From an uncultured Clostridia bacterium (GTDB lineage: Bacteria; Bacillota; Clostridia; UMGS1883): 45,276 nucleotides of DNA. A program made the translations under genes and the position numbers. Positions 2,998-39,645 of the stretch are shown one piece after another (position 1 is the stretch's first letter; the number at the start of each line of letters is the position of its first letter). Where the stretch lies: NCBI GenBank assembly GCA_947624455.1, contig CANQKL010000001.1, positions 1-45,276 on the forward strand, read 5' to 3'. Under the pieces are notes generated by a model that was given only the letters and a program-made list of their open reading frames with translations, was not told the DNA's origin and ran no database searches.

Positions 2998-3930
2998 GTG
3001 ACCGACGATTTTGAACACTTGACAGTGCTTGCCCAGGAAACAGTCGATCAGCTCCAGGTTCGGCCCGGCGGGCTTTACGTGGACTTCACCCTTGGGGGCG
3101 GGGGCCACAGCGCGATCATATTGGAGCGGGGCGGCAGAGTCGTGGGCATAGACCGGGATCAAAGCGCCATAGACCACTGTAAAGAGCGGTTTTCGGAGCT
3201 GGGGGACAGGTTCACGCCCGTCCATGACAACTTGAGGAACGTGAAAAATATACTGGCGGGCCTGGGGCTGGACAGCCCCGACGGTATTGTGGCCGACCTG
3301 GGCGTTTCCTCGCCTCAGTTGGACAAGCCCGAGCGGGGGTTCTCCTACATGAGCGACGCTCCGCTGGATATGCGGATGGATCCCTCACAGAGCTTGACCG
3401 CCAGGGACGTGGTGAACGGCTACTCCGAGGCGGAGCTGTTCAGGGTCATCAGCCAGTTCGGCGAGGAACGCTGGGCCTCCCGAATAGCGAGATTTATCGA
3501 CGAAAGACGAAAGCAGGAGCCTGTGGAAACGACGGGCCAGCTTGTGGAAATAATCAAGGCCGCCATACCGGCGTCCGCCCGCAAAGACGGGCCGCATCCG
3601 GCAAAGCGGACTTTTCAGGCCATCAGGATAGAGGTCAACGGCGAATTGGATATTTTGGAGGGGGCCGTGCGCTCCGGCGTGGACGCCTTGAAAAAAGGGG
3701 GCCGGATAGCGGTGATCACCTTCCACAGCCTTGAGGACAGGATAGTTAAAAACACCTTCGCCGCCCTGGAAAGGGGCTGCGAGTGTCCGAAGGATTTTCC
3801 GGTCTGCGTCTGCGGGAAAAAGCCGGAGGTGCGCGTCCTCACCCGGCGGCCGATAACCCCTTCCGCCGCAGAGCTGGAAAGCAACCCCCGCGCCAGGAGC
3901 AGCAAGCTCAGGGCCGCTGAAAAAATATAG
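2998..3930 (+). CDS. rsmH: 16S rRNA (cytosine1402-N4)-methyltransferase RsmH
   Basis: SAM motif DFTLGGGGHS and the conserved ITFHSLEDR block. Start set at GTG 2998 (GAGGTG at 2985-2990); the ORF is open from 2965. Confidence 0.9.
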   Translation: MTDDFEHLTVLAQETVDQLQVRPGGLYVDFTLGGGGHSAIILERGGRVVGIDRDQSAIDHCKERFSELGDRFTPVHDNLRNVKNILAGLGLDSPDGIVADLGVSSPQLDKPERGFSYMSDAPLDMRMDPSQSLTARDVVNGYSEAELFRVISQFGEERWASRIARFIDERRKQEPVETTGQLVEIIKAAIPASARKDGPHPAKRTFQAIRIEVNGELDILEGAVRSGVDALKKGGRIAVITFHSLEDRIVKNTFAALERGCECPKDFPVCVCGKKPEVRVLTRRPITPSAAELESNPRARSSKLRAAEKI

Positions 3931-4009: not shown

Positions 4010-4513
4010 ATGAGCGTATTGTACGCGGTTCAGGGTTCCAACGCCCTTCAGGAAGCTTATGTGCCGGAGGAGCTGGTCGAGGAATCGGTCGTCCAAACTC
4101 CTAAAAAGAAGCCCTCGGCCCGCCGCGTTCCCCGGAAACGGGGCCTTACGGGCCAGAAAAAGGCGGCGATCATGGGCGTTGTGCTTGCCCTGTCGGTCAT
4201 GGCCTTTATCGTGCAGGTGCTCATGGCGAATTTGAATACGAATTACAGGATTCTCAGCCAGAAAAAGAAGGAGCTGAGCGGGCTTGAGGCCCAGGTCGAG
4301 CAGCTTGCCTCGGAGACCGAGGGCGCGGCGGTAGTGACCGTCACCGAGGAACAGGCGGCGGAGCTGGGACTGTACAAGGCGGACAAGGACAGGGTGGTAT
4401 ATATCTCCCTGGACGACACAGACTCGGGCCAGGTGCTGGCCGAGGACGACAGCAACGTGGGGCTGCACGCCTTCTTTAACAAAGTTGCGGCCATCATGGA
4501 ATATTTTTATTGA
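4010..4513 (+). CDS. ftsL: FtsL-like cell-division protein (single TM followed by a coiled coil)
   Basis: Position between rsmH and the PBP gene. Basic N-terminus, TM helix AAIMGVVLALSVMAFIVQVLM, then a heptad-like segment. Weak RBS; TTG 4004 is an alternative start. Confidence 0.6.
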   Translation: MSVLYAVQGSNALQEAYVPEELVEESVVQTPKKKPSARRVPRKRGLTGQKKAAIMGVVLALSVMAFIVQVLMANLNTNYRILSQKKKELSGLEAQVEQLASETEGAAVVTVTEEQAAELGLYKADKDRVVYISLDDTDSGQVLAEDDSNVGLHAFFNKVAAIMEYFY

Positions 4514-11739: not shown

Positions 11740-11804
11740 GGAGCCTTAACACACTTCCCCGTCCCCGCATAATATAAAGTATAGTTATGCGTGGAGGTGC
11801 GGGA

Positions 11805-13001
11805 ATGGGCGACTACATAGTTGTCGGCAAAAGACCCCTTGACGGAAAATTGAAGGTTTACGGCGCGAAAAACGCCGTCCTGCCCATATTGGCTGGCTGC
11901 GTCCTGTCCAGCGGCGGGGTGCTGCTCGACAACTGCCCCCGTTTGAGCGACGTGAGCTATACCCTTGGCATACTGGAACGCCTTGGGTGCAGGACTGCCT
12001 TTGACGGGGAAAAGATTTTCGTCAACCCGGCGGGGATAGACTCCTGGACGGTGGACACCGGCGGCGGGGATATGCGCAGCTCCGTGAACTTTCTCGGGGC
12101 GTTGGCTGGCCGGTTCGGGGCGGCGGCCCTGCCCCTGCCCGGCGGGTGCAAGCTGGGCAGGCGGCCCATAGACATCCACATTCGGGCCTTGAAGGCCATG
12201 GGGGTGGAGGTGGAGATCGACGGCGGAACGGTGCTGGCCTACGGCCATCCCCGGGGGGCCAGCGTGCAACTTGACTTCCCCAGCGTGGGAGCCACTGAAA
12301 ACGTGATACTGGCCGCCGTCACCGCCCCGGGAATGACCGTTCTCTCCAACGCCGCCCGTGAGCCGGAAATAGGCGATCTGTGCCGCTTCCTTACGGCTAT
12401 GGGAGCCAAAATACACGGGGTGGGCAGCGATATGCTCAGGATAGAGGGCGTCAGCCGCTATATGTGCGCCGTCATGACCGCCGGGGGCAGGCTTGAGATA
12501 GAAAACGCCGTCCGGCCCCATCTCCGGGAGGTAGCCGCCGTCCTGACCCGCTGCGGCGGGGATATAAGCTGGGGCAGGGACAGCGTCTCTCTCCGGGCGC
12601 CAAAGATCCTGGGCGGCTGCGGGACTGTACGAACCGGCGTGTACCCGGGCTTCCCCACCGACTGCCAGTCTCAGGTCATGGCGGTCATGGCCTGTTCCAG
12701 GGAGCCGGGGGTCATGATAGAAAATATTTTTGAAAGCCGCTTTAAGATTGTGCCGGAGCTTCGGCGCATGGGAGCGGACATTTGCTGCCTTGGCCGGGAG
12801 GCCCGGGTCAGGGGCGGCGATCTGCGGGGAGAACGCTTGCAGGCCAGGGACCTGCGGGGCGGAGCGGCTCTGGTAGTGGCGGCCCTTGGGGCCAAGGGCG
12901 AGAGCCGGGTGTCCGGCACGGAGTATATCGCCCGGGGCTACCGCGATCTGGCGGGAGAGCTGGCCTCTGTGGGGGCGGACATAAGGGTGAGCCGGGACTG
13001 A
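11805..13001 (+). CDS. murA: UDP-N-acetylglucosamine 1-carboxyvinyltransferase (divergent MurA paralogue)
   Basis: Start ATG 11805 (GGAGGTG at 11792-11798). GAKNAVLPIL, catalytic-Cys loop LPGGCKLGRRPIDIH, and FPTD all present. The PDRIEAGT segment appears to be missing. Confidence 0.8.
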   Translation: MGDYIVVGKRPLDGKLKVYGAKNAVLPILAGCVLSSGGVLLDNCPRLSDVSYTLGILERLGCRTAFDGEKIFVNPAGIDSWTVDTGGGDMRSSVNFLGALAGRFGAAALPLPGGCKLGRRPIDIHIRALKAMGVEVEIDGGTVLAYGHPRGASVQLDFPSVGATENVILAAVTAPGMTVLSNAAREPEIGDLCRFLTAMGAKIHGVGSDMLRIEGVSRYMCAVMTAGGRLEIENAVRPHLREVAAVLTRCGGDISWGRDSVSLRAPKILGGCGTVRTGVYPGFPTDCQSQVMAVMACSREPGVMIENIFESRFKIVPELRRMGADICCLGREARVRGGDLRGERLQARDLRGGAALVVAALGAKGESRVSGTEYIARGYRDLAGELASVGADIRVSRD

Positions 13002-13020: not shown

Positions 13021-13935
13021 ATGAGAGCCGTGAAAAAACGTCGGCGCAGACTGAAAAAACAGATTTCCATTGGGTTGACCGTCTTTTGCCTGCTGGCCGC
13101 GGGCTGCATGGCTCTGCTGCTGACGCCTCTTTTCAATGTGTCCACCGTTACCGTCACCGGCAATACCACCATCGGAACCGAAGCCATCGTCAAGGGCAGC
13201 GGCATCGTCAAGGGGACTAATATATTCAGCGTCAGTCTCAGCGCTGTGACCGACCGGCTGTCCGGCATGAACGGCGTGAGCGCCGTAAAAGTGAAGCGCA
13301 GCCTTCCCTCCACCATACGCATCTCCATAACCGAGGGCGTTCCCATGGTCTATGTGGAAAACGGCGGCAGCTTTGTGGGCATAACCGCCGACGGTAAGGT
13401 GGTGGATGTGGCCGAGGCCGGTTCAGCGGCGGCCGCCGTCATCGCCAACCCCCTTGAGCGGGAGCCTGACGGCGAAGCCGACAGCGAAACCGGCGAAACC
13501 GACGGCGAAACTGACGAGAATACCGACGAGGAGACTGACGGGGAAACCGACGGGGAGACCGGCGAAGCCGACGGGGCCGCCTCCTCTCCCAAGGGGACAG
13601 GCTCCGGCAGGACGGTGGTGTACGGCATGGGGGCTTTCACCTATTCCGTGGGCAAGGAGATAGCGTTCGAGGATCAGGTCAAGGCCCGTAAGCTGGAGCT
13701 TTTGATGAGCGATTTCCTGGGCGACGACATCTGCCGGGGCTTTACCCAGGTGGACATGGCCGCCTATGACAATATAACCATGGTCTATCAGGGCCGACTC
13801 AAGGTGCGTCTTGGGGACGCGGAGGATCTGGATTACAAGCTCCGCTGCTTCAAGACCATAATCACGGAAAATCTGGGCGAGGATCCCGTAGGCTTGCTGG
13901 ATCTGGAACGCTTGACATATAATCCCAAAAAATGA
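13021..13935 (+). CDS. ftsQ: Cell-division protein FtsQ/DivIB (POTRA) with an internal acidic low-complexity insert
   Basis: Basic N-terminus, one TM helix, POTRA-like NVSTVTVTGNT...IRISITE. Located immediately upstream of ftsZ. Confidence 0.75.
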   Translation: MRAVKKRRRRLKKQISIGLTVFCLLAAGCMALLLTPLFNVSTVTVTGNTTIGTEAIVKGSGIVKGTNIFSVSLSAVTDRLSGMNGVSAVKVKRSLPSTIRISITEGVPMVYVENGGSFVGITADGKVVDVAEAGSAAAAVIANPLEREPDGEADSETGETDGETDENTDEETDGETDGETGEADGAASSPKGTGSGRTVVYGMGAFTYSVGKEIAFEDQVKARKLELLMSDFLGDDICRGFTQVDMAAYDNITMVYQGRLKVRLGDAEDLDYKLRCFKTIITENLGEDPVGLLDLERLTYNPKK

Positions 13936-13968
13936 TAAAAAAATTTTAAGAAAATTTAAAATTAGCTA

Positions 13969-13997
13969 TTGAATATATTGAAAATATATTGTATAAT
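13969..13997 (+). promoter_or_regulatory. SigA-type promoter upstream of ftsZ
   Basis: TTGAAT (13969-13974), 17-nt spacer ending in TG, TATAAT (13992-13997), in an AT-rich spacer. Confidence 0.55.
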
Positions 13998-14049
13998 AGA
14001 ATATATTGATGTACGTGCGAAAAAATTACACGGCGAGGAGGACTTTCCA

Positions 14050-15108
<1,059 letters not shown>

Positions 15109-15187: not shown

Positions 15188-15263
15188 TACATTAATACTA
15201 AAAGCGGCGAAGCCCGGCTTGTGACGGAGCTTTTACGGCGGTTATAAAACGAAAAGAGTAATA

Positions 15264-15292
15264 TTGACAATTCCATTTTCGGGTGATATAAT
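15264..15292 (+). promoter_or_regulatory. Consensus SigA promoter of the DUF6291-like gene
   Basis: TTGACA (15264-15269), 17-nt spacer ending in TGa, TATAAT (15287-15292). Confidence 0.65.
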
Positions 15293-15317
15293 GCCCCCAG
15301 AGAAAGAGGGGGATAAA

Positions 15318-15611
15318 ATGGAAAAAGACGTGGAAAAAAAGAGCTTTTTGTTCTACTATGACTACCGTCGGCACTTGTCGCTGCTCACTGACGAGGAGCG
15401 GGGGAAGCTGCTGATGGGGCTGTTGGACTATGGTGAGGACGGCTCCCGTCCCAAGCTGAACGGGGCGGCGGCAATGGCCTTTTCCTTCATTTCGGCCCAG
15501 ATGGACCGTGACGCCGAAAAGTACGCCGAGGTTTGCAAGGCCCGCAGCGAGGCTGGCAAAAAAGGGGCCAAGCAGCGGTGGCGCGGCAAAGATTCGGACA
15601 GCGTCCAATAG
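15318..15611 (+). CDS. DUF6291-like small protein (a family seen in phage/ICE replication modules)
   Basis: ATG 15318 follows AGAGGGGG. FLFYYDY...LTDEERGKLLMGLLDYGEDG...AAMAFSFISAQMDRDAEKY...EAGKKGAKQR matches my memory of the DUF6291 pattern. Not verified by search. Confidence 0.55.
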   Translation: MEKDVEKKSFLFYYDYRRHLSLLTDEERGKLLMGLLDYGEDGSRPKLNGAAAMAFSFISAQMDRDAEKYAEVCKARSEAGKKGAKQRWRGKDSDSVQ

Positions 15612-15744
15612 CAAAAGCCATATTTGCCATGAGGCCTTATGGCAAAAATAGCTGATACGGATAAAGAAAAAGAAACAGAAACAGAAAAAGATACTGATAA
15701 AGTAAAACAAAATGATATAGATATAGTAATAGTAGATGGGCCGC

Positions 15745-15843
15745 TTTTCCACAGCCTCTTTGATTTTCCCCATAATAGCGGGCGTTTACCCTGTGGAAAA
15801 CTCGTGAAAAATTGTGGAAAGCCTGTGGAAAGCCTGTGGAAAA
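15745..15843 (+). repeat. DnaA-box-like / iteron array: one inverted box plus five tandem 10-11 nt units
   Basis: TTTTCCACA at 15745-15753. TGTGGAAAA 15792, cGTGAAAAA 15803, TGTGGAAAG 15813, TGTGGAAAG 15824, TGTGGAAAA 15835. Confidence 0.6.
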
Positions 15844-15892
15844 CCCTTGGCGCGGGCGGAAAAAAATTTTTTAAAAAATTTCTGTTTCCCTA

Positions 15893-15921
15893 TTGCATAA
15901 TTATAAAAAATAGTGTATAAT
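15893..15921 (+). promoter_or_regulatory. SigA-type promoter of argD-argF
   Basis: TTGCAT (15893-15898), 17-nt spacer ending in TG, TATAAT (15916-15921). Confidence 0.6.
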
Positions 15922-15927
15922 GATACA
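15894..15927 (+). promoter_or_regulatory. Two ARG-box-like palindromes overlapping the argD promoter (candidate ArgR/AhrC operator)
   Basis: TGCATAATTATAAA (15894-15907) and TGTATAATGATACA (15914-15927), compared with the TGAAT-w4-ATTCA core. Starts are 20 nt apart. Confidence 0.35.
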
Positions 15928-15953
15928 TATTTTATTCGAGAGGTGGATTTGCC

Positions 15954-17153
15954 ATGACCTTACAGGAAATCATGGATGTAGACGAAAAATATTACATGAA
16001 CACCTTCGGCAAGAGGCTGCCCGTGGCCTTTGACCACGGAAAGGGGATGTACCTCTACACCGAGGCCACCGAGGAGTGTCCCCAGGGCGAAGCCTATATG
16101 GATATGTTCGCCGGTATCGCCGTAACGGCCCTGGGCCACTGTCACGAGGGCTTTACCAAGGCCGTTCAGGAGCAGGTGGGCAAGCTCGTCCACACCTCCA
16201 GCCTGTATTACATAAAGAATCAGGCTTTGCTGGCGAAAAAGATCTGCGACTGCTCCGTGGCCGACCGGGTGTTTTTCTGCAACAGCGGGGCCGAGGCCAA
16301 CGAGGGAGCCATGAAGCTGGCCAAGATATACTTCTACAAGCGGGGCGAGGAAAGGTTCGAGATCATCACCCTCAACAATTCCTTCCACGGCCGGACTCTG
16401 GCCACCGTGGCCGCCACCGGTCAGCCCAAGTATCAAAAGCCCTACAAGCCCCTTGTCCCCGGCATAAAGCACGTTGACATCAACGACTTTGAGGGGCTGG
16501 AGGCCGCCGTCACCGACAAGACCTGCGCCATTATGCTGGAGGCGGTCCAGGGGGAGAGCGGCGTCCACCTTTGCACCGACGAGTACCTGCTCAAGGTGCG
16601 CAGGCTCTGCGATGAAAAGGGCATCCTGCTCATCTTTGACGAGGTTCAAACCGGCATGGGCCGCACCGGCGAGATGTTCGCCTACCAGACCACCCCTGTG
16701 GAGCCGGATATATTTACCCTGGCCAAGGCTTTGGGCGGCGGGGTTCCCATTGGCGCCCTGTGCGCCAAGGAGTTCGTGGCCAGCGCCTTCGAGCCGGGAG
16801 ATCACGGCGGCACCTTCGGCGGCAATCCTTTGGCTACCGCCGCTGGAATGGCCGTGTTCGAGGCCTTTGAAAAGGAAAATATTTTGGACAACGTTCGGAA
16901 AATGGGCGACTATTTTGAGGAGAGGGTAAAGGCCCTGAACTCCCCCGACATTCTGGAAATACGCCGCAAGGGCCTGATGATAGGGCTGCAAATGCCCCAG
17001 GGCCGGGCGGCTCAGGTGCAGAAGCGGCTCTTTGAGGACAAGGTTCTGGTGGGCTGCGTGGGCGGCCACACATTGCGGATACTTCCGCCCCTCGTCATTT
17101 CAAAAATGGATATAGACATTTTTGTGGAAAAGCTTTGGGAGGCAATGGCATGA
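15954..17153 (+). CDS. argD: Acetylornithine aminotransferase (class III PLP aminotransferase)
   Basis: Motifs NSGAEANEGAMKLA, DEVQTGMGRTG and TLAKALGGG (PLP lysine). Start overlap (ATGA) with argF. Confidence 0.88.
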   Translation: MTLQEIMDVDEKYYMNTFGKRLPVAFDHGKGMYLYTEATEECPQGEAYMDMFAGIAVTALGHCHEGFTKAVQEQVGKLVHTSSLYYIKNQALLAKKICDCSVADRVFFCNSGAEANEGAMKLAKIYFYKRGEERFEIITLNNSFHGRTLATVAATGQPKYQKPYKPLVPGIKHVDINDFEGLEAAVTDKTCAIMLEAVQGESGVHLCTDEYLLKVRRLCDEKGILLIFDEVQTGMGRTGEMFAYQTTPVEPDIFTLAKALGGGVPIGALCAKEFVASAFEPGDHGGTFGGNPLATAAGMAVFEAFEKENILDNVRKMGDYFEERVKALNSPDILEIRRKGLMIGLQMPQGRAAQVQKRLFEDKVLVGCVGGHTLRILPPLVISKMDIDIFVEKLWEAMA

Positions 17154-18076
17154 ATCAAAAGCACTTACTTACGCTCCACGACTGGAGCTCCGACGATATT
17201 TTAGAAACTCTCGCCCTGGCGGATAAGCTCAAGAGGGAGCTTAAGGCCGGAACGGCGCGCCCGATTTTGTCGGGCAAGACCCTGGCGATGATCTTTACAA
17301 AGTCCTCCACCCGCACCCGCGTCTCCTTTGAGACGGGGATATATCAGTTGGGCGGGCAGGGGATATTCCTGTCCTCCGCCGACATACAGCTTGGCCGGGG
17401 GGAGACTATCTACGACACCGCCAACGTTCTGGGCCGGTATGTGGACGGCATTATGATACGCACCTTCAAGCAGTCGGACGTTGAGGATCTGGCCCGTTAC
17501 AGCGGCATACCCGTCATCAACGGCCTTACGGATCTGGTACACCCCTGTCAGGTGCTGGCCGATCTCCAGACCGTGGCTGAAAAGAAGGGGAAGCTGGAGG
17601 GCCTTAAGCTGGCCTATGTGGGCGATGGCAACAATATGGCCCACTCCTACCTTTACGGCTGCGTCAAGGTGGGCATGGACGTGGCCATAGCCACTCCCGC
17701 AGGCTACGGCTGCAACGGCGAGGTGGTCGAAAACGCCAAAAACGACGCCCGTGCCACCGGCGTGACCGTAACTGTTACCAACGACCCTGTGGAGGCGGTG
17801 ACCGGAGCCGACGTTGTCTGCACCGACACCTGGTGCTCCATGGGTCAGGAGGCGGAAAAGGCCCGCCGCATAAAGGACTTCGAGGGCTATCAGGTGGACG
17901 GCAAGCTCTTTGCCAAGGCCAGGGAGGACGCGATTTTCCTCCACTGTCTGCCGGCGTACCGGGGCTTCGAGGTGACCGAGGAGGTCATAGACGGCCCACG
18001 CAGCGTCATATTCGACGAGGCCGAGAACCGTCTCCACGCCCAAAAGGCCGTGATGGCGCTGCTGATGGGAAATTAG
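17150..18076 (+). CDS. argF: Ornithine carbamoyltransferase
   Basis: Motifs STRTR, HPCQ and HCLP. ATG 17150 overlaps the argD stop. Confidence 0.92.
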   Translation: MNQKHLLTLHDWSSDDILETLALADKLKRELKAGTARPILSGKTLAMIFTKSSTRTRVSFETGIYQLGGQGIFLSSADIQLGRGETIYDTANVLGRYVDGIMIRTFKQSDVEDLARYSGIPVINGLTDLVHPCQVLADLQTVAEKKGKLEGLKLAYVGDGNNMAHSYLYGCVKVGMDVAIATPAGYGCNGEVVENAKNDARATGVTVTVTNDPVEAVTGADVVCTDTWCSMGQEAEKARRIKDFEGYQVDGKLFAKAREDAIFLHCLPAYRGFEVTEEVIDGPRSVIFDEAENRLHAQKAVMALLMGN

Positions 18077-20608: not shown

Positions 20609-20649
20609 AAAACCGCACAAAAACGTTGCCACTTTTTTGTGCGGTTTTT
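20609..20649. terminator. Strong A/T-flanked hairpin with no gene to terminate
   Basis: aaaaccgcacaaaaa / tttttgtgcggtttt, about a 14-bp stem, with A-tract and T-tract arms. Confidence 0.4.
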
Positions 20650-20688
20650 ACAAAATTTTAAAAAGTAAAAAAAATTTTACAAAACCGC

Positions 20689-20723: not shown

Positions 20724-21015
20724 GCTGTGACATGACATACTATGAAGCGGGAGGTTGCCGGCAAAAGGCCGGGTTTTTCCGTGGAGAATGTCCGGCTCAC
20801 GAAGCCGGGCGGCAGTCACTGTACAACATGATAAAGCTTTGCGTGCATCGATTCTTCGATGGTGGGACCCCTTGTTCCCGCGCCCATCTTCATGTAGTAC
20901 CCGGAGCTCAGCGTCCGGGTTTTAGTATGGCTAAGGGTGAAACGCCCGGAGCTATGTACAGGCGTCGCATGAGTCACAAATAACTTATTCTATTATTTTA
21001 TTAGGAGGCACATGT
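20724..21015 (+). promoter_or_regulatory. About 290-nt structured leader of the S10 operon (candidate r-protein autoregulatory leader or ncRNA)
   Basis: Several hairpins, including catcga-ttct-tcgatg and two followed by T-runs (20758-20778, 20899-23). No credible coding ORF. Confidence 0.45.
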
Positions 21016-21342
21016 ATGGCAGCAAAGCAAAAAATGAGAATCAGGATCAAGGGTTACGACCACGTTCTTCTCGACCAGTCCGCGGAAAAAATCGTGGAAA
21101 CAGCCAAGAGAACAGGCTCCACAGTCTCCGGTCCCATCCCCCTGCCCACTGAAAAGGAAATCGTTACCATCCTCCGCGCCGTCCACAAGGACAAGGACAG
21201 CCGCGAACAGTTCGAGCAGAGAACCCACAAGAGATTGATCGACATTCTCAACCCCACTCCCAAGACCATGGAGGCTCTCGGCAAGCTGGACGTTCCCGCT
21301 GGCGTGAGCATCGACGTCAAGCTCATCGACAAGAGCAAGTGA
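21016..21342 (+). CDS. rpsJ: 30S ribosomal protein S10
   Basis: [17 protein letters not shown]...; AGGAGG RBS; first gene of the S10 operon. Confidence 0.97.
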
Positions 21343-21408
21343 GTTTTGGACCGTTAAGGTAATGTTGGCCCTAAGGTCAACCAATAACCGTATAAGGAGG
21401 ATAATTTT

Positions 21409-22041
21409 ATGCAGAAGGCAATCATCGGCAAGAAAATCGGTATGACCCAGATTTTTGACGCCACAGGCAAGGTAATTCCCGTTACTGTTATCGAGGCGGG
21501 CCCCTGCCCCGTAGTCCAGAAAAAGACCAGCGAGGTCGACGGATACGAGGCCGTTCAGGTGGGCTTCGGCGATAAAAAGGAAAAGCGCTCCAACAAGGCT
21601 GAGCTGGGCCACTTCAACAAGGCCGGCGTCAGCGTGCGCAAGGTGCTTAAAGAGCTGCGTCTGGCCGACGTGAGCGGCCTCAACGTGGGCGACGAGATCA
21701 AGTGCGACGTTTTCGCCGAGGGCGACAGAGTAGACGTCAGCGGCACCAGCAAGGGTAAGGGCTACGCCGGCGTTATCAAGCGCTTCGGCACTCACCGCCT
21801 TAAGGAAACCCACGGTACCGGCCCCGTACACCGCCATCCCGGCTCTATGGGCGCCTGCTCCACTCCCTCCAGAGTTATGAAGGGCAAGAAGCTCCCCGGC
21901 CACATGGGCGCCGAAAAGGTCACCGTCCAGAACCTGGACGTGGTTCGGGTGGATACCGAGCGCAACCTCATCCTTGTGAGAGGCGCCGTTCCCGGCCCCA
22001 AGGGCGGCATCGTCACAATCAAGAATACAGTGAAGGCTTAA
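21409..22041 (+). CDS. rplC: 50S ribosomal protein L3
   Basis: [12 protein letters not shown]...; conserved gene order. Confidence 0.97.
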
Positions 22042-22067
22042 GTGCCTAACGGAAAGGAGATGCTAAT

Positions 22068-22691
22068 ATGCCTACAGCAGTATTATATAATGTGCATGGC
22101 AGCAAGGTGGGCCAGATCGAGCTGAGCGACAAGCTTTTTGGCGCCGAGGTCAACATGAGCGTCCTTCACGACAGCGTTGTGAACTACCTTGCCAACCAGA
22201 GACAGGGTACCCAGAGTACCAAGACCCGCACGGAGGTCAAGGGCGGCGGCAAAAAGCCTTACCGCCAGAAGGGTACCGGCCGGGCCCGCCAGGGCTCCAC
22301 GAGAGCTCCCCAGTGGACAAAGGGCGGCGTGGCTTTAGGCCCCAAGCCCAGAGATTATTCCTATAACCTCAATAAAAAGGTAAAGAAACTGGCCATGATC
22401 AGCGCTCTCAGCAGCAAGGCTGAGGAAAACAGCATTTACGTTGTGGAGGGCCTTTACTTGGACGAGGCTAAGACAAAGACCATAGCCGCTATGCTCAAAG
22501 AAATGGGCGTCAGCGATAAGACCCTTATCGTTACGGCCGAAATGGAAAAGAACGTGTATCTTTCCGCCAGAAACATCGAGGGCGTGGACGCCTCTTATGT
22601 GGGAATGTTGAACGTTTATTCCGTGCTGGCTCACGATAAGCTGGTTCTCGCTAAGGAAGCCCTTCCCAGACTTGAGGAGGTATATGCGTAA
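22068..22691 (+). CDS. rplD: 50S ribosomal protein L4
   Basis: [15 protein letters not shown] motif. Confidence 0.97.
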
Positions 22692-37063: not shown

Positions 37064-37241
37064 CTGCGAGACAACTGGATATTATTCTGAGATCACGGTA
37101 GGTGTACGTATATGAAAAAAACGTATGCTTTGGTATTCATTTCTTATCGTGTTTTCAGATGGAGTGAAGTTGTCTCGCAGCAATAAGCCTTGGCAGACGT
37201 TTTTTGTGCGCTGCCCCAACAATACGAGCGGCGCATTTTTT
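37064..37241 (+). promoter_or_regulatory. Structured leader: 13-bp long-range stem enclosing a small ORF, then an intrinsic terminator
   Basis: ctgcgagacaact (37064-37076) pairs perfectly with agttgtctcgcag (37168-37180). Terminator tgcgctgc...gcggcgca plus T6 at 37207-37241. Confidence 0.5.
37112..37186 (+). CDS. Candidate 24-codon leader peptide MKKTYALVFISYRVFRWSEVVSQQ
   Basis: AGGTG lies 7 nt upstream of ATG 37112. The last 6 sense codons lie in the right arm of the 13-bp stem. Confidence 0.3.
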   Translation: MKKTYALVFISYRVFRWSEVVSQQ

Positions 37242-37272
37242 ACGCCGTGACAGGACTGAGGAGGACATTCTT

Positions 37273-39294
37273 ATGAAAAAAGCTTTGACAGCGATAGCGG
37301 CCGCGATTTTGGCTGCTCTGGGCCTGTGCGCCGCCGCCTCGGCGGAGCAGTTCACCGAGGGCTTCTACACCTATACCGTCGAAAACGGCGAGGCCACCAT
37401 AACCAGGATCACCGGCGAACATCCGGACGGGGACGGCAATCTGGTCATTCCCTCGGAGCTGGGCGGCTGTCCGGTGACCGCTATCGGCGACAGCGCCTGC
37501 ACCCACAGGGGCCTTGATCAGGCGGTCAAAACTCACTATGTGCTTCCCGAGACCTTGACCACGGTGGAGCCTTACGCCTTTTACTACAACAAAAATATTA
37601 CCGGCCTTACGGTTCAGAGCAATTTGGAAACTGTGGGGACTCAGGCTTTTGCCGGCGTGTCCGTTGAAGAACTGATAATCGGCGACCAGGTGACCGATTT
37701 CAAACTCGGCCTGCCCCACAAACCGTCGAAAAGGGCCGTCATCGGCAAAAATATCACCGAGATACCCGACAAATTTTTTGAGTACAGCGAGTTTGACGAG
37801 ATAACTTTTCGGGGCGCCCCCGTCAGGATCGGCAGCCGGGCCTTTTACGGCTGTACCGCTCTGAGCCGCCTGGAGCTTGGCGATAAGCTTACATATATTG
37901 GGAGCGAGGCCTTTAGCGGCCTGACCGAGACGGAGATAACCCTCGATTCAAGCAACGTGACCGAAATAGGCTACGACGCCTTTAGGAACTGCGCCAAGCT
38001 GAGCGGCGAGCTTGACCTGAGAGGGCTTGAAAAAATAGAAAGCGGAGTTTTCAAGGGCTGCGCGGGCCTGAGCCGCCTGGAGCTTGGCGATAAGCTGACA
38101 TATATTGGGGACGAGGCCTTTAGCGGCCTGACCGAGACGGAGATAACCCTCGATTCAAGCAACGTGACCGAAATAGGCTACGAGGCTTTTAAAGACTGCG
38201 CCGGGCTGAGCGGCGAGCTTGATCTGAGGGGGCTTGAGAAAGTAGAAAACGGGGCTTTCATGGGCTGCATGGGCTTGAGCCGGGCGGAGCTCGGCTACGG
38301 GCTGACGAGCATAGGCGAGAACGCCTTTTACGGCTGCCTTGCGCTGGAGTCCGCCCATATCCCCGACAGCGCGTACAGCGTTGGGGATATGGCCTTCGCC
38401 CTCTGCCCGAGCCTCAGCGACGTGACGTTGCCCAGGGGCCTCGCGGAAATACCCAGCGGCCTGTTTTTGGGCTGCGCATCCCTCACAGAGATACAGATAC
38501 CCAATACCGTCACGAACATACGCTATATGGCCTTTGCCGGTACGGGTCTGGAGCGCGTGACTCTGCCCTCCGCCCTGGAGAGCCTGAGCAATCTGGTGTT
38601 TTACGGCTGCGACTCCCTGGACTATATCGACATAAAGGGGAACCCCTACTACAGCTCCGAGGACGGCGTCATCTACTACACGTCCGGCGGCAGCAAGGTG
38701 CTGGGCGTATATCCTCCCGGGCGGACAGGCAAGTTCACCGTTCCCGCCGGAGTGGGCTACATCTTTAACGGGGCCTTTGCCACATCGTCCCTCACCAGCC
38801 TGACCGTACCCTCCACCGTCATGAGTATTGGGGAGCTGGCCTTTGCGGACAGCGATATGACGGTTTACGTTTACAGCGGCAGCGTGGCCGAAAATTACCT
38901 TTTGACCTATCCTGACGAGGCGGACTATTTTGTGGTCAACGGCGAGCGTCGGGGGCTGTTCCTGAACAGGTTCAGCGCCGGTTCCGCCGGGGTGAGGGTG
39001 TCGGTTATGAACGACACCTCCCGGGCCATGGACTGCGGTACTCTGTACGTGGCTCAGATGTGCGGCGACCGGGTGCTGAGGGTGGATGCCTTTGACTGCG
39101 GCACGGTCTACCGCCAGGGGAAGCAGGTCTTTAGGGTCACGGATATGGAGCCGGAAGCGGATTCCGCCGCCGTGTACCTTTGGGACGACGTGCTGCGGCC
39201 GCTGACCGACTGTTGCAGGGCTTTGCCCTCGGACGCTTCGGCACAGCAGGCGGGCCAAGGGGAACAGACCCTTGACAAATTTGCCGCCCAGTGA
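37273..39294 (+). CDS. Secreted BspA-type leucine-rich-repeat (LRR_5-like) surface protein
   Basis: ATG 37273 follows GAGGAGG. Signal peptide MKKALTAIAAAILAALGLCAAASA. Many repeats of the form ..IP..VT.IG..AF..C..L.. Confidence 0.8.
   Translation: MKKALTAIAAAILAALGLCAAASAEQFTEGFYTYTVENGEATITRITGEHPDGDGNLVIPSELGGCPVTAIGDSACTHRGLDQAVKTHYVLPETLTTVEPYAFYYNKNITGLTVQSNLETVGTQAFAGVSVEELIIGDQVTDFKLGLPHKPSKRAVIGKNITEIPDKFFEYSEFDEITFRGAPVRIGSRAFYGCTALSRLELGDKLTYIGSEAFSGLTETEITLDSSNVTEIGYDAFRNCAKLSGELDLRGLEKIESGVFKGCAGLSRLELGDKLTYIGDEAFSGLTETEITLDSSNVTEIGYEAFKDCAGLSGELDLRGLEKVENGAFMGCMGLSRAELGYGLTSIGENAFYGCLALESAHIPDSAYSVGDMAFALCPSLSDVTLPRGLAEIPSGLFLGCASLTEIQIPNTVTNIRYMAFAGTGLERVTLPSALESLSNLVFYGCDSLDYIDIKGNPYYSSEDGVIYYTSGGSKVLGVYPPGRTGKFTVPAGVGYIFNGAFATSSLTSLTVPSTVMSIGELAFADSDMTVYVYSGSVAENYLLTYPDEADYFVVNGERRGLFLNRFSAGSAGVRVSVMNDTSRAMDCGTLYVAQMCGDRVLRVDAFDCGTVYRQGKQVFRVTDMEPEADSAAVYLWDDVLRPLTDCCRALPSDASAQQAGQGEQTLDKFAAQ
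37861..38274 (+). repeat. In-frame tandem duplication (2 x 207 nt) inside the LRR gene
   Basis: The first 116 nt of each unit differ at only 3 positions; the remaining 91 nt are about 80% identical. Confidence 0.9.

Positions 39295-39302: not shown

Positions 39303-39641
<339 letters not shown>

Positions 39642-39645
<4 letters not shown>

Follow-up and report, generated by a model that had tools for sequence, protein, structure and literature searches.

What is the cluster of DnaA-box-like repeats that lies between ftsZ and argD in an uncultured Clostridia bacterium: a replication origin, a remnant of one, or something else? The locus belongs to a stretch of 45,276 nucleotides (assembly GCA_947624455.1, contig CANQKL010000001.1), which was analysed over its whole length and is called the window here. 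An earlier note on this DNA had described, at 15745-15950, five phased 11-mers and one inverted copy followed by a GC-rich clamp and an AT-rich tract, and had read the series as an origin-like module. We consider it probable, if well short of certain, that the array is the distal end of a ~590-bp phage-derived cassette (~15255-15845) that was inserted into the ftsZ-argD spacer, is under constraint and does not fire, and whose boxes would bind DnaA. The cassette comprises a promoter, a stand-alone DUF6291 open reading frame (ORF) of 97 amino acids (aa), a GCAAA-type palindrome, a former linker of 76% A+T and converging DnaA-box-like sites. Four other contigs from related uncultured Clostridia (L010, L011, L012 and L065) carry it, at two other chromosomal sites. 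The parts and the adjoining spacer, by position in the window, are:

15264..15292, + strand: cassette promoter, TTGACA-17 nt-TATAAT with a TG extension, 12/12 consensus positions, shared with L011, L012 and L065
15318..15611, + strand: 97-aa DUF6291 protein, an organizer N-terminal domain with the C-terminal domain missing (Pfam PF19808, PHROG 16304, AlphaFold 2 (AF2) model)
15612..15653, no strand: palindrome or iteron-like block directly after the stop codon, GCAAA / TTTGCCAT / ATGGCAAAA (19-nt arms, conservation in five copies)
15654..15735, no strand: former linker, 76% A+T, 77% purine on the + strand, 18-bp periodicity (GATAC.GATAAAGAAAAAGAAACAGAAACAG..) (repeat search, alignment)
15744..15754, - strand: inverted DnaA-box-like site CTTTTCCACAG, a perfect TTWTNCACA (consensus scan; present in 5/5 cassette copies)
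15763..15786, no strand: TTTTCCCCA, a one-mismatch box on the - strand inside the small palindrome TTTCCC-N8-GGGAAA (mismatch scan, alignment)
15790..15845, + strand: direct array of five 10-11-bp units (c)CTGTGGAAAAc, one of them degenerate, converging on the inverted site (Tandem Repeats Finder, mismatch scan)
15846..15953, + strand: resident ftsZ-argD spacer, outside the cassette, with the GC cluster, the AT tract with its palindrome and the argD promoter TTGCAT-N17-TATAAT (spacer alignment)

The box array

Five head-to-tail TGTGGAAAA-type units occupy 15792-15843 in steps of 11, 10, 11 and 11 bp, and Tandem Repeats Finder reported the array at 15790-15845 with a period of 11, 5.2 copies and the consensus CCTGTGGAAAA. 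At no more than one mismatch, TGTGGAAAA was found on the + strand at 15792, 15813, 15824 and 15835 and on the - strand at 15745 and 15764; the second unit of the array, CGTGAAAAA at 15803, has two mismatches. Measured against the 27 matches that the same threshold yields outside the cluster (~90 kb, both strands of the window), six matches in 100 bp have a Poisson probability of ~6e-11. The five units and the inverted copy claimed in the earlier note were thus borne out, with coordinates right to within one base, and so were the proposed fit to TTWTNCACA and the geometry of same-orientation sites one helical turn apart. Three units of the cluster match this consensus strictly and, counting three perfect sites plus four with one or two mismatches within 100 bp, the cluster is of the kind expected in a chromosomal origin (oriC). 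It had been said that a generic intergenic 11-mer scattered through the genome would speak against the module. Within the window this is not the case, as CTGTGGAAAAC (at most one mismatch) occurs eight times against 0.6 expected, with four of the eight in the cluster and the others single.

Perfect TTWTNCACA sites are also present beyond the cassette, at 2320, 13353, 17123, 23420 and 43173 (eight in the whole window, against 1.6 expected). Three of these five are TTTTCCACA and at least three fall within coding regions, and codon composition rather than function may be their cause.

The cassette is an apparent insertion into a resident spacer

A look-up of the window's FtsZ by exact match returned no record. 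The genes around the module are:

11787-13001: MurA-like
13021-13935: FtsQ
14050-15108: FtsZ (ORF as scanned 13969-15108)
15954-17153: class-III aminotransferase, ArgD-like
17135-18076: ornithine carbamoyltransferase

The same synteny, murA-ftsQ-ftsZ-argD-ornithine carbamoyltransferase, is found in L179, a contig of the assembly that also holds L012 (GCA_947626145.1), with 92% identity to the window in ArgD, 93% in FtsZ and 90% in the carbamoyltransferase. Its ftsZ-argD spacer measures 467 bp and contains neither a DUF6291 gene nor the array. The more distant L183 (ArgD 82%) has the same ftsZ-argD synteny and likewise lacks both the DUF6291 gene and the boxes. Since a relative as close as L179 keeps the gene order without the cassette, the spacer alignment that the earlier note had asked for indicates that the cassette is an insertion in the window's ftsZ-argD spacer.

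The GC cluster (15846-15859, 14% A+T) and the AT tract (15860-15953, 78% A+T, with the palindrome AAATTTTTT/AAAAAATTT) were both present as previously described. From ~15857 on, the window is homologous to L179 and L183 across GGAAAAAAATTTT..AAAAAATTT..CCTATTGCATAATTATAAAAAATAGTGTATAATGATACATATTTTATTC; the AT tract and promoter align with L179, and L183 aligns by the promoter and parts of the AT tract. For the GC cluster, a resemblance is seen with the spacer of L183 only (TTGACGCGGCAAAAAAAA; TTGaCGCGGc). It had been noted that the AT tract carries the argD promoter, and TTGCAT-N17-TATAAT is indeed conserved in L179 and L183. Because the tract is kept in relatives without boxes, it is read here as the resident argD promoter region, and the order of boxes, GC and AT, formerly taken for an origin unit of boxes, clamp and unwinding tract, becomes a juxtaposition made by the insertion, since both right-hand elements belong to the host spacer. 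That unit fails on a second count, as the DNA beyond the array differs without any relation in the other cassette copies. The extent first given to the module took in the boxes and missed the cassette's own AT-rich stretch, 15654-15735, on their left.

These results also bear on whether the module is an element of the host chromosome, be it oriC, a secondary origin or a native DnaA-titration site like datA. Dense, phased, consensus-fitting boxes in an intergenic region with an AT-rich tract beside them are what such an element would offer. However, the cumulative GC skew, a check that had been proposed for this site, increases monotonically between 11 and 20 kb, from 0.50 to 1.21, with no switch at the site, the neighbours are ftsZ and argD and not dnaA or dnaN, L179 and L183 are syntenic without the module, and the adjacent AT tract, being the argD promoter and present in box-free relatives, forms no conserved unit with the boxes. 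We give a host element very little credence, and its oriC version is already largely refuted; oriC at 15745-15950 was rejected on the skew, the neighbours and the absence from syntenic relatives. A DnaA-trio or basal unwinding system left of the inverted box (TAGTAATAGTAGAT-GGGCCGC-TTTTCCACA) was considered as well and dropped, as the TAGTAATAGTAG run there is not conserved among the copies. The orientation of the box in this arrangement is opposite to that of the canonical DnaA-trio.

Copies at other chromosomal sites

The copy in L010 (the same place as L002) adjoins rpsT; ispG and dnaE flank the other three, which are in L011 (identical in place to L006), L012 and L065. Common to the copies is the order promoter, short ORF, TAGCAAATGC..TTTGCCAT palindrome, GCTGATACaGAtAAAGA stretch, CTTTTCCACAG and direct TGTGGAAAAC units. 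L011, L012 and L065 have in common the promoter sequence TTGAC..CCATTTTCGGGTG.TATAAT, and in the window a ribosome-binding site (RBS), GAGGGGG, precedes the ATG at 15318. Close homologues of the 97-aa protein are short as well (88-160 aa).

The palindrome of the window has two 19-nt arms (15616-15634 and 15635-15653) that are 84% complementary, and in full-length DUF6291 genes the homologue of its block, 15612..15653, encodes '..KANAFSEKQ..'. Two runs, TAGCAAA.GC.AT.TTTG.CAT and CAAAAAT.GCTGATAC, are invariant in the five copies. The palindrome reads TAGCAAATGC.ATTTTTGCCAT..ATGGCAAAAAT.GC across the copies and is followed by the purine/A-rich GCTGATAC.GA.AAAGA.AAAGAAA.., of which GCTGATAC.GA.AAAGA.AAA is kept in all of them. 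Within the cassette itself, the candidate for easy melting is this former linker, which encodes a D/T/E/K linker in full-length genes and is now out of the ORF frame. At the end of the tail stand the inverted CTTTTCCACAG (5/5; the MAFFT alignment of the five copies misplaces that of L010), the small palindrome TTTCCC-N8-GGGAAA, clearer in L011, L012 and L065 than in the window, and one to five direct TGTGGAAAAC units. The number of units is one plus two degenerate ones in L010, two in L012, three in L011, four in L065 (three of them TGTTGAAAA) and five in the window. Upstream of the promoter's -35 element, and again beyond the final unit, the window ceases to resemble the other loci, and the limits of ~15255-15845 were set accordingly. 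More copies were sought by means of a conserved 22-base motif, with no match in 2.9 million viral contigs or in Joint Genome Institute (JGI) metagenomes.

Two further candidates at the locus were examined. First, the 11-nt ATTTGCCATGA occurs twice, at 15622-15632 in the cassette palindrome and at 15947-15957 in the RBS/start region of argD. The pair could mark a recombination junction; with a chance probability of ~0.1 by rough estimate, it was not convincing as a terminal repeat or target duplication and is probably a coincidence. Second, an ORF at 15639-15920 was considered as a gene or programmed frameshift and rejected, as it has no Pfam or PHROG match, its frame is lost in L010, L011 and L012, and blastx against full-length proteins returned nothing.

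The ispG-dnaE spacers of related metagenome-assembled genomes are full of a ~200-bp element resembling a miniature inverted-repeat transposable element (MITE), with inverted AATATTCCTCATTCCTCAYTCCTAATTCC / GGAATTAGGAATGAGGAATATT ends and an internal TACGGCGTTTTGCGTGTATGTGCCGTAAAT hairpin (L011:2890-2920, 3530-3760; L012:2730-2765, 2900-2930, 3550-3750, 4245-4320; L065:80-100, 735-1100). One copy starts right behind a conserved TTGACA-N17-TATAAT promoter located after the box array. These MITE-like elements flank the cassette in L011, L012 and L065, and the window has none of them.

The DUF6291 protein and its phage relatives

The neighbouring gene had been called DUF6291-like, and Pfam confirms this: the 15318-15611 protein matches PF19808 over profile positions 1-79 of 79 (E = 4e-28, 97.8 bits against a gathering cut-off of 27.2). 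Its match to PHROG 16304 (2e-27) covers only positions 3-88 of a 244-position profile. Together with tblastn, this search leads to phage proteins of 220-270 aa, matched only in the first 80-92 profile positions and in some cases annotated 'replication protein'. The AF2 model of the 97-aa protein consists of three helices (predicted local distance difference test, pLDDT, 80), and in the fold search it superposes best on the N-terminal part of viral proteins that bear the names DUF6291, DnaD-domain protein and replisome organizer. Searches of the PDB by fold and by sequence gave nothing significant and no recognisable DNA-binding fold.

Most genomic and viral homologues are 200-316 aa long and combine the DUF6291 domain with a D/T/E/K-rich linker and either of two C-terminal domains. 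The closest full-length homologue, in L013, is 76% identical over the domain and stands in the order Gam, ERF, SSB, DUF6291, DnaC/IstB-like loader; L009 has ERF, SSB, DUF6291. As these gene orders match Bacillota phage replication modules, DUF6291 can be placed in the organizer position, and gene order and homology indicate that it is the N-terminal domain of phage replisome organizers in Gam-ERF-SSB-organizer-helicase-loader modules. The window itself encodes only the N-terminal 97 aa, against 220-290 aa in the relatives, and has ftsZ and argD as flanks in place of the replication module of L013 and L009.

A GGRPKK motif, which we take to resemble an AT-hook, is present in the linker after the domain of full-length DUF6291 proteins. 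No paper in the searched literature mentions the family, no PADLOC defence model matched the protein at E <= 1, and it has no NCBIfam membership.

Origin-like DNA behind the domain across the family

The DNA following the domain was examined for 7-mer enrichment relative to the rest of the locus in DUF6291 loci L010-L063 and L185-L197. The 90 bp after the domain-coding part were significantly rich in direct and inverted 7-mers in 45/62 loci (median empirical p = 0.013), independently of whether this DNA is translated. Core motifs are clade-specific (AAGCAAA..GCTTTT..AAAAGC, AAACCCA..CCCACTGGGTT, AAACCGAaCGGTTTT and GCGAACG), and a GATAC/GATAA-rich stretch comes after the repeats. Short ORFs that end immediately ahead of such repeats are also seen in several further lineages. 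The window's palindrome and 76% A+T former linker are homologous to the repeat stretch of the family, and DUF6291 genes in general may carry a phage origin in their linker-coding DNA.

Selection on the ORF and the non-coding tail

None of the five ORFs is disrupted, and every pair of copies has a dN/dS (ratio of nonsynonymous to synonymous substitution rates) of 0.13-0.26. For the ORF, dS is 0.9-1.5 between the window and the other copies and 0.36 between L011 and L065, which share a site. The corresponding dnaE dS, L006 (= L011) versus L065, is 0.43, and the similarity of the two values is consistent with vertical inheritance at the ispG-dnaE site. The non-coding tail of the window is 72-75% identical to those of L011, L012 and L065 and 58% identical to that of L010, values that the A-rich composition inflates somewhat, whereas synonymous sites differ between the window and the other copies by 51-65% (pS; ~35-49% identity), near saturation. 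The tail is conserved in blocks, and the palindrome, GCTGATAC and CTTTTCCACAG contain invariant runs. We conclude from these comparisons that ORF and non-coding tail are both under constraint.

As for the kind of site in the tail, RNAalifold found only two palindromes, with a covariation penalty of +2.92 and almost no compensatory pairs, and Rfam gave no family, only a sub-threshold rli34 match over the argD start. Sequence-specific DNA sites are the simpler reading because compensatory changes and an Rfam match are both lacking.

The earlier note had offered a relic plasmid or phage origin among its explanations. Of the options it listed, the phage origin comes closest, in that the array travels with a DUF6291 gene and thus with an organizer N-terminal domain; 'relic' appears to understate the case, given the constraint on ORF and tail. 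A neutral leftover of a decayed prophage, with the repeats as fossil origin sequence, would explain why the C-terminal domain is lost, why the former linker is out of frame after several frame changes, and why the array varies from one to five copies with degenerate units. We nevertheless hold it to be very unlikely, considering that 5/5 ORFs are intact at a low dN/dS with dS up to ~1.5, that a perfect consensus promoter is kept and that non-coding tail blocks are invariant though synonymous sites are near saturation. In addition, the same truncated form at three sites is not what independent decay would be expected to leave.

Are the boxes DnaA boxes?

The low-affinity DnaA arrays of E. coli oriC consist of same-orientation sites 2 bp apart with an 11-bp period, and the array here is likewise in one orientation at an 11-bp period. 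TTTTCCACA fits TTWTNCACA and is an accepted cyanobacterial DnaA box (PMC6323995). Among viral contigs, arrays of at least three TGTGGAAA units were found in 113 and canonical TGTGGATA arrays in at least 120; scrambled controls of the scan gave 52 and 21 contigs. A perfect TTATCCACA lies within 150 bp of 12/99 TGTGGAAA arrays and of 0/65 scrambled-control arrays (62-fold local enrichment), and mixed arrays occur in L073, L078, L109, L126, L127 and L155. Two phage contigs, L102 and L080, have a three-unit TGTGGAAAAC array ~165-175 bp upstream of a DUF6291 gene, and L102 has a second repeat set (AATCTGAAC-type) between the boxes and this gene, after YqaJ-RecT-DUF1064. The best reading of the boxes is as putative DnaA sites.

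Some observations weigh against a phage-derived cassette with DnaA on its boxes. The enrichment of viral TGTGGAAA arrays over scrambled controls is modest (113 versus 52 and 21). All boxes in all cassette copies are TGTGGAAAA/G and none is the canonical TGTGGATAA, a uniformity that would also fit a dedicated binding protein. Three of the four direct L065 units are TGTTGAAAA, with a change at a position that matters to DnaA; this C-to-A variant is, however, frequent in the 'DnaA*' boxes of T5 (bioRxiv 10.1101/866236). Near most DUF6291 loci, whether of prophages or of phages, there is no cluster of DnaA boxes, which makes the boxes particular to this clade. In the 7-mer test the window's own palindrome block was not significant (p = 0.28), while 45/62 of the family scored as repeat-rich; what the window does have is the conserved 19-nt-arm palindrome and the 76% A+T stretch. 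Neither a recombinase nor terminal repeats that might explain a relocation between sites were found around the cassette. Finally, within one genus-level group the genome of the window has the cassette at ftsZ-argD and that of L012/L179 has it at ispG-dnaE, and the assignment of L012 and L179 to the same genome rests on metagenome binning.

Part of this would be accounted for if the phased 11-mers and the inverted copy were operators or iterons of the DUF6291 protein itself, used for autoregulation or for a nucleoprotein complex of its own. The boxes strictly accompany this gene clade and are missing beside most other DUF6291 genes, every unit is of the one non-canonical type with conserved flanks (C..C), and the concerted G-to-T change in three L065 units is what a co-evolving private binder could tolerate. 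However, the element that varies with the protein clade is the repeat block after the domain and not the TGTGG motif; TGTGGAAA arrays occur in many unrelated phages that have no DUF6291, often mixed with canonical DnaA boxes; L102 keeps a distinct repeat set between its boxes and its DUF6291 gene; and no DNA-binding fold could be recognised for the three-helix model in the PDB. We therefore regard an operator as unlikely, though not negligibly so, and retain DnaA as the favoured occupant of the boxes.

A general association of DUF6291 genes with DnaA-box clusters was sought among the DUF6291 loci and not found. A common gene neighbour of the viral TGTGGAAA arrays was also looked for, and the neighbours were heterogeneous (2OG oxygenases, terminases, capsid proteins and others). 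Among viral contigs L066-L178, the TGTGGAAAA array of, for example, L079, L084, L143 and L152 ends directly at a TATAAT-like element, behind which comes a conserved AGGTAACGTTTAAACTTTTACGGAGGTAAAAAA leader, and L066, L083, L085, L116 and others have a common tgtggaaaACATtgtggaaaAACCtgtggaaaACTAAATGG motif, again with heterogeneous neighbour genes.

Comparison with known systems

The origin of phage lambda lies within the linker-coding part of gene O, and oriL of SPP1 lies within gene 38. The DUF6291 family resembles both in having repeats or a palindrome and an A+T-rich stretch in the linker DNA after the N-terminal domain, and in that the full-length gene stands just upstream of a helicase-loader gene. 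The cassette differs in that its initiator is cut down to the N-terminal domain with the former linker untranslated, the loader gene is absent and the unit stands alone between housekeeping genes. DUF6291 has no detectable relation to O or G38P in sequence or PDB fold, and binding of its domain to the repeats is a prediction.

Iteron-type origins with accessory DnaA boxes, such as P1 oriR, pSC101 and RK2 oriV, share with the cassette the order rep gene, initiator-site block, A+T-rich stretch and DnaA-box cluster. In contrast to these, the cassette has no full Rep, is a candidate for autonomous replication, and has a head-to-tail one-turn array with a converging copy where they have one to four scattered boxes.

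B. subtilis has eight stable DnaA-binding intergenic regions outside oriC (PMC2533591). The cassette is similar to these and to E. coli datA as an intergenic, consensus-like DnaA-box cluster away from oriC that could hold DnaA; it differs in having no fixed chromosomal position and moving with a phage-derived gene, and its DnaA sites are predicted. T5-like phages carry eight paired DnaA boxes in the first-step-transfer region, with a non-origin role (bioRxiv 10.1101/866236). These are likewise phage-borne and precisely arranged and include a C-to-A variant, TTATCAACA, that parallels TTTTCAACA in L065, whereas their pairs lie 3 bp apart inside inverted repeats, in another host and with another proposed role.

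Proposed action and possible roles

On the interpretation that we favour, the cassette would have kept a strong promoter and the organizer N-terminal domain as a 97-aa protein, together with the linker-coding DNA (iterons or palindromes and then an A-rich stretch across the family) and one inverted plus one to five phased direct DnaA-box-like sites. We infer that the small protein binds the GCAAA palindrome beside its own gene and that host DnaA oligomerises on the phased, same-orientation TTTTCCACA boxes. As the organizer C-terminal domain and the phage helicase-loader gene are absent, the cassette presumably cannot fire alone and would persist as a constrained, non-firing initiator-DNA complex. 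It would most plausibly be of benefit by interfering with, or titrating, replication-initiation factors, which may belong to related phages, be DnaA, or both. On the right, the GC cluster and AT tract are the argD promoter region of the host and would have no part in this.

An origin that is silent alone could still fire when a related phage supplies the full-length organizer and the loader, so that the cassette would behave like a satellite or amplify in situ. All cis parts of an iteron-type origin are kept (palindrome/iteron block, A+T-rich stretch and DnaA boxes), short stand-alone DUF6291 ORFs with iterons are also found in other Bacillota genome contigs and in one viral contig, and the cassette is at different sites in related genomes. 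Yet no packaging, excision or integration functions are nearby, the flanks being housekeeping genes, no close relative was present among 2.9 million viral contigs, and firing beside ftsZ would be costly. Such helper dependence appears quite improbable to us.

For the non-firing complex favoured above, one specific role would be that of a replication decoy: a domesticated, relocatable origin plus initiator-domain cassette whose constitutively expressed domain and cis DNA, the latter with DnaA kept on its phased boxes, poison or titrate replication initiation by incoming related phages. We consider this role doubtful. Origin-based 'Per' resistance has been engineered in lactococci; a cassette acting as a decoy would be its natural counterpart and would represent an unrecognised class of defence or immunity element.

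Whatever its role, the locus now has a specific annotation in place of a cryptic origin, with the argD promoter removed from the supposed origin. It also gives a handle on the uncharacterised DUF6291, as a putative organizer N-terminal domain with clade-specific repeats after the domain-coding DNA. The system is small and testable (~590 bp, one 97-aa protein and three kinds of cis site), constrained over deep divergence and variable in site, and it raises the question whether part of a phage origin was kept to interfere with phage replication or to buffer DnaA.

Other features of the window

In the ftsQ-ftsZ spacer, AT-rich tandem repeats (AAAAAATTTTA x3 and TATTGAATA x4.7, 13927-14009) lie just before the ftsZ start at 14050. 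An S10-Clostridia ribosomal leader at 20733-20815 (+) is followed by rpsJ, rplC and rplD (21016-22691) and preceded by an AT-rich spacer with a four-fold TTTTACAAAA repeat (20646-20684). Bacterial class A RNase P RNA was found at 39308-39644 (+) with 265.8 bits. Upstream of it, a 696-aa ORF (37204-39294), probably a repeat-domain surface protein, contains a 207-bp tandem duplication at 37861-38282 (2.0 copies, 90% identity).

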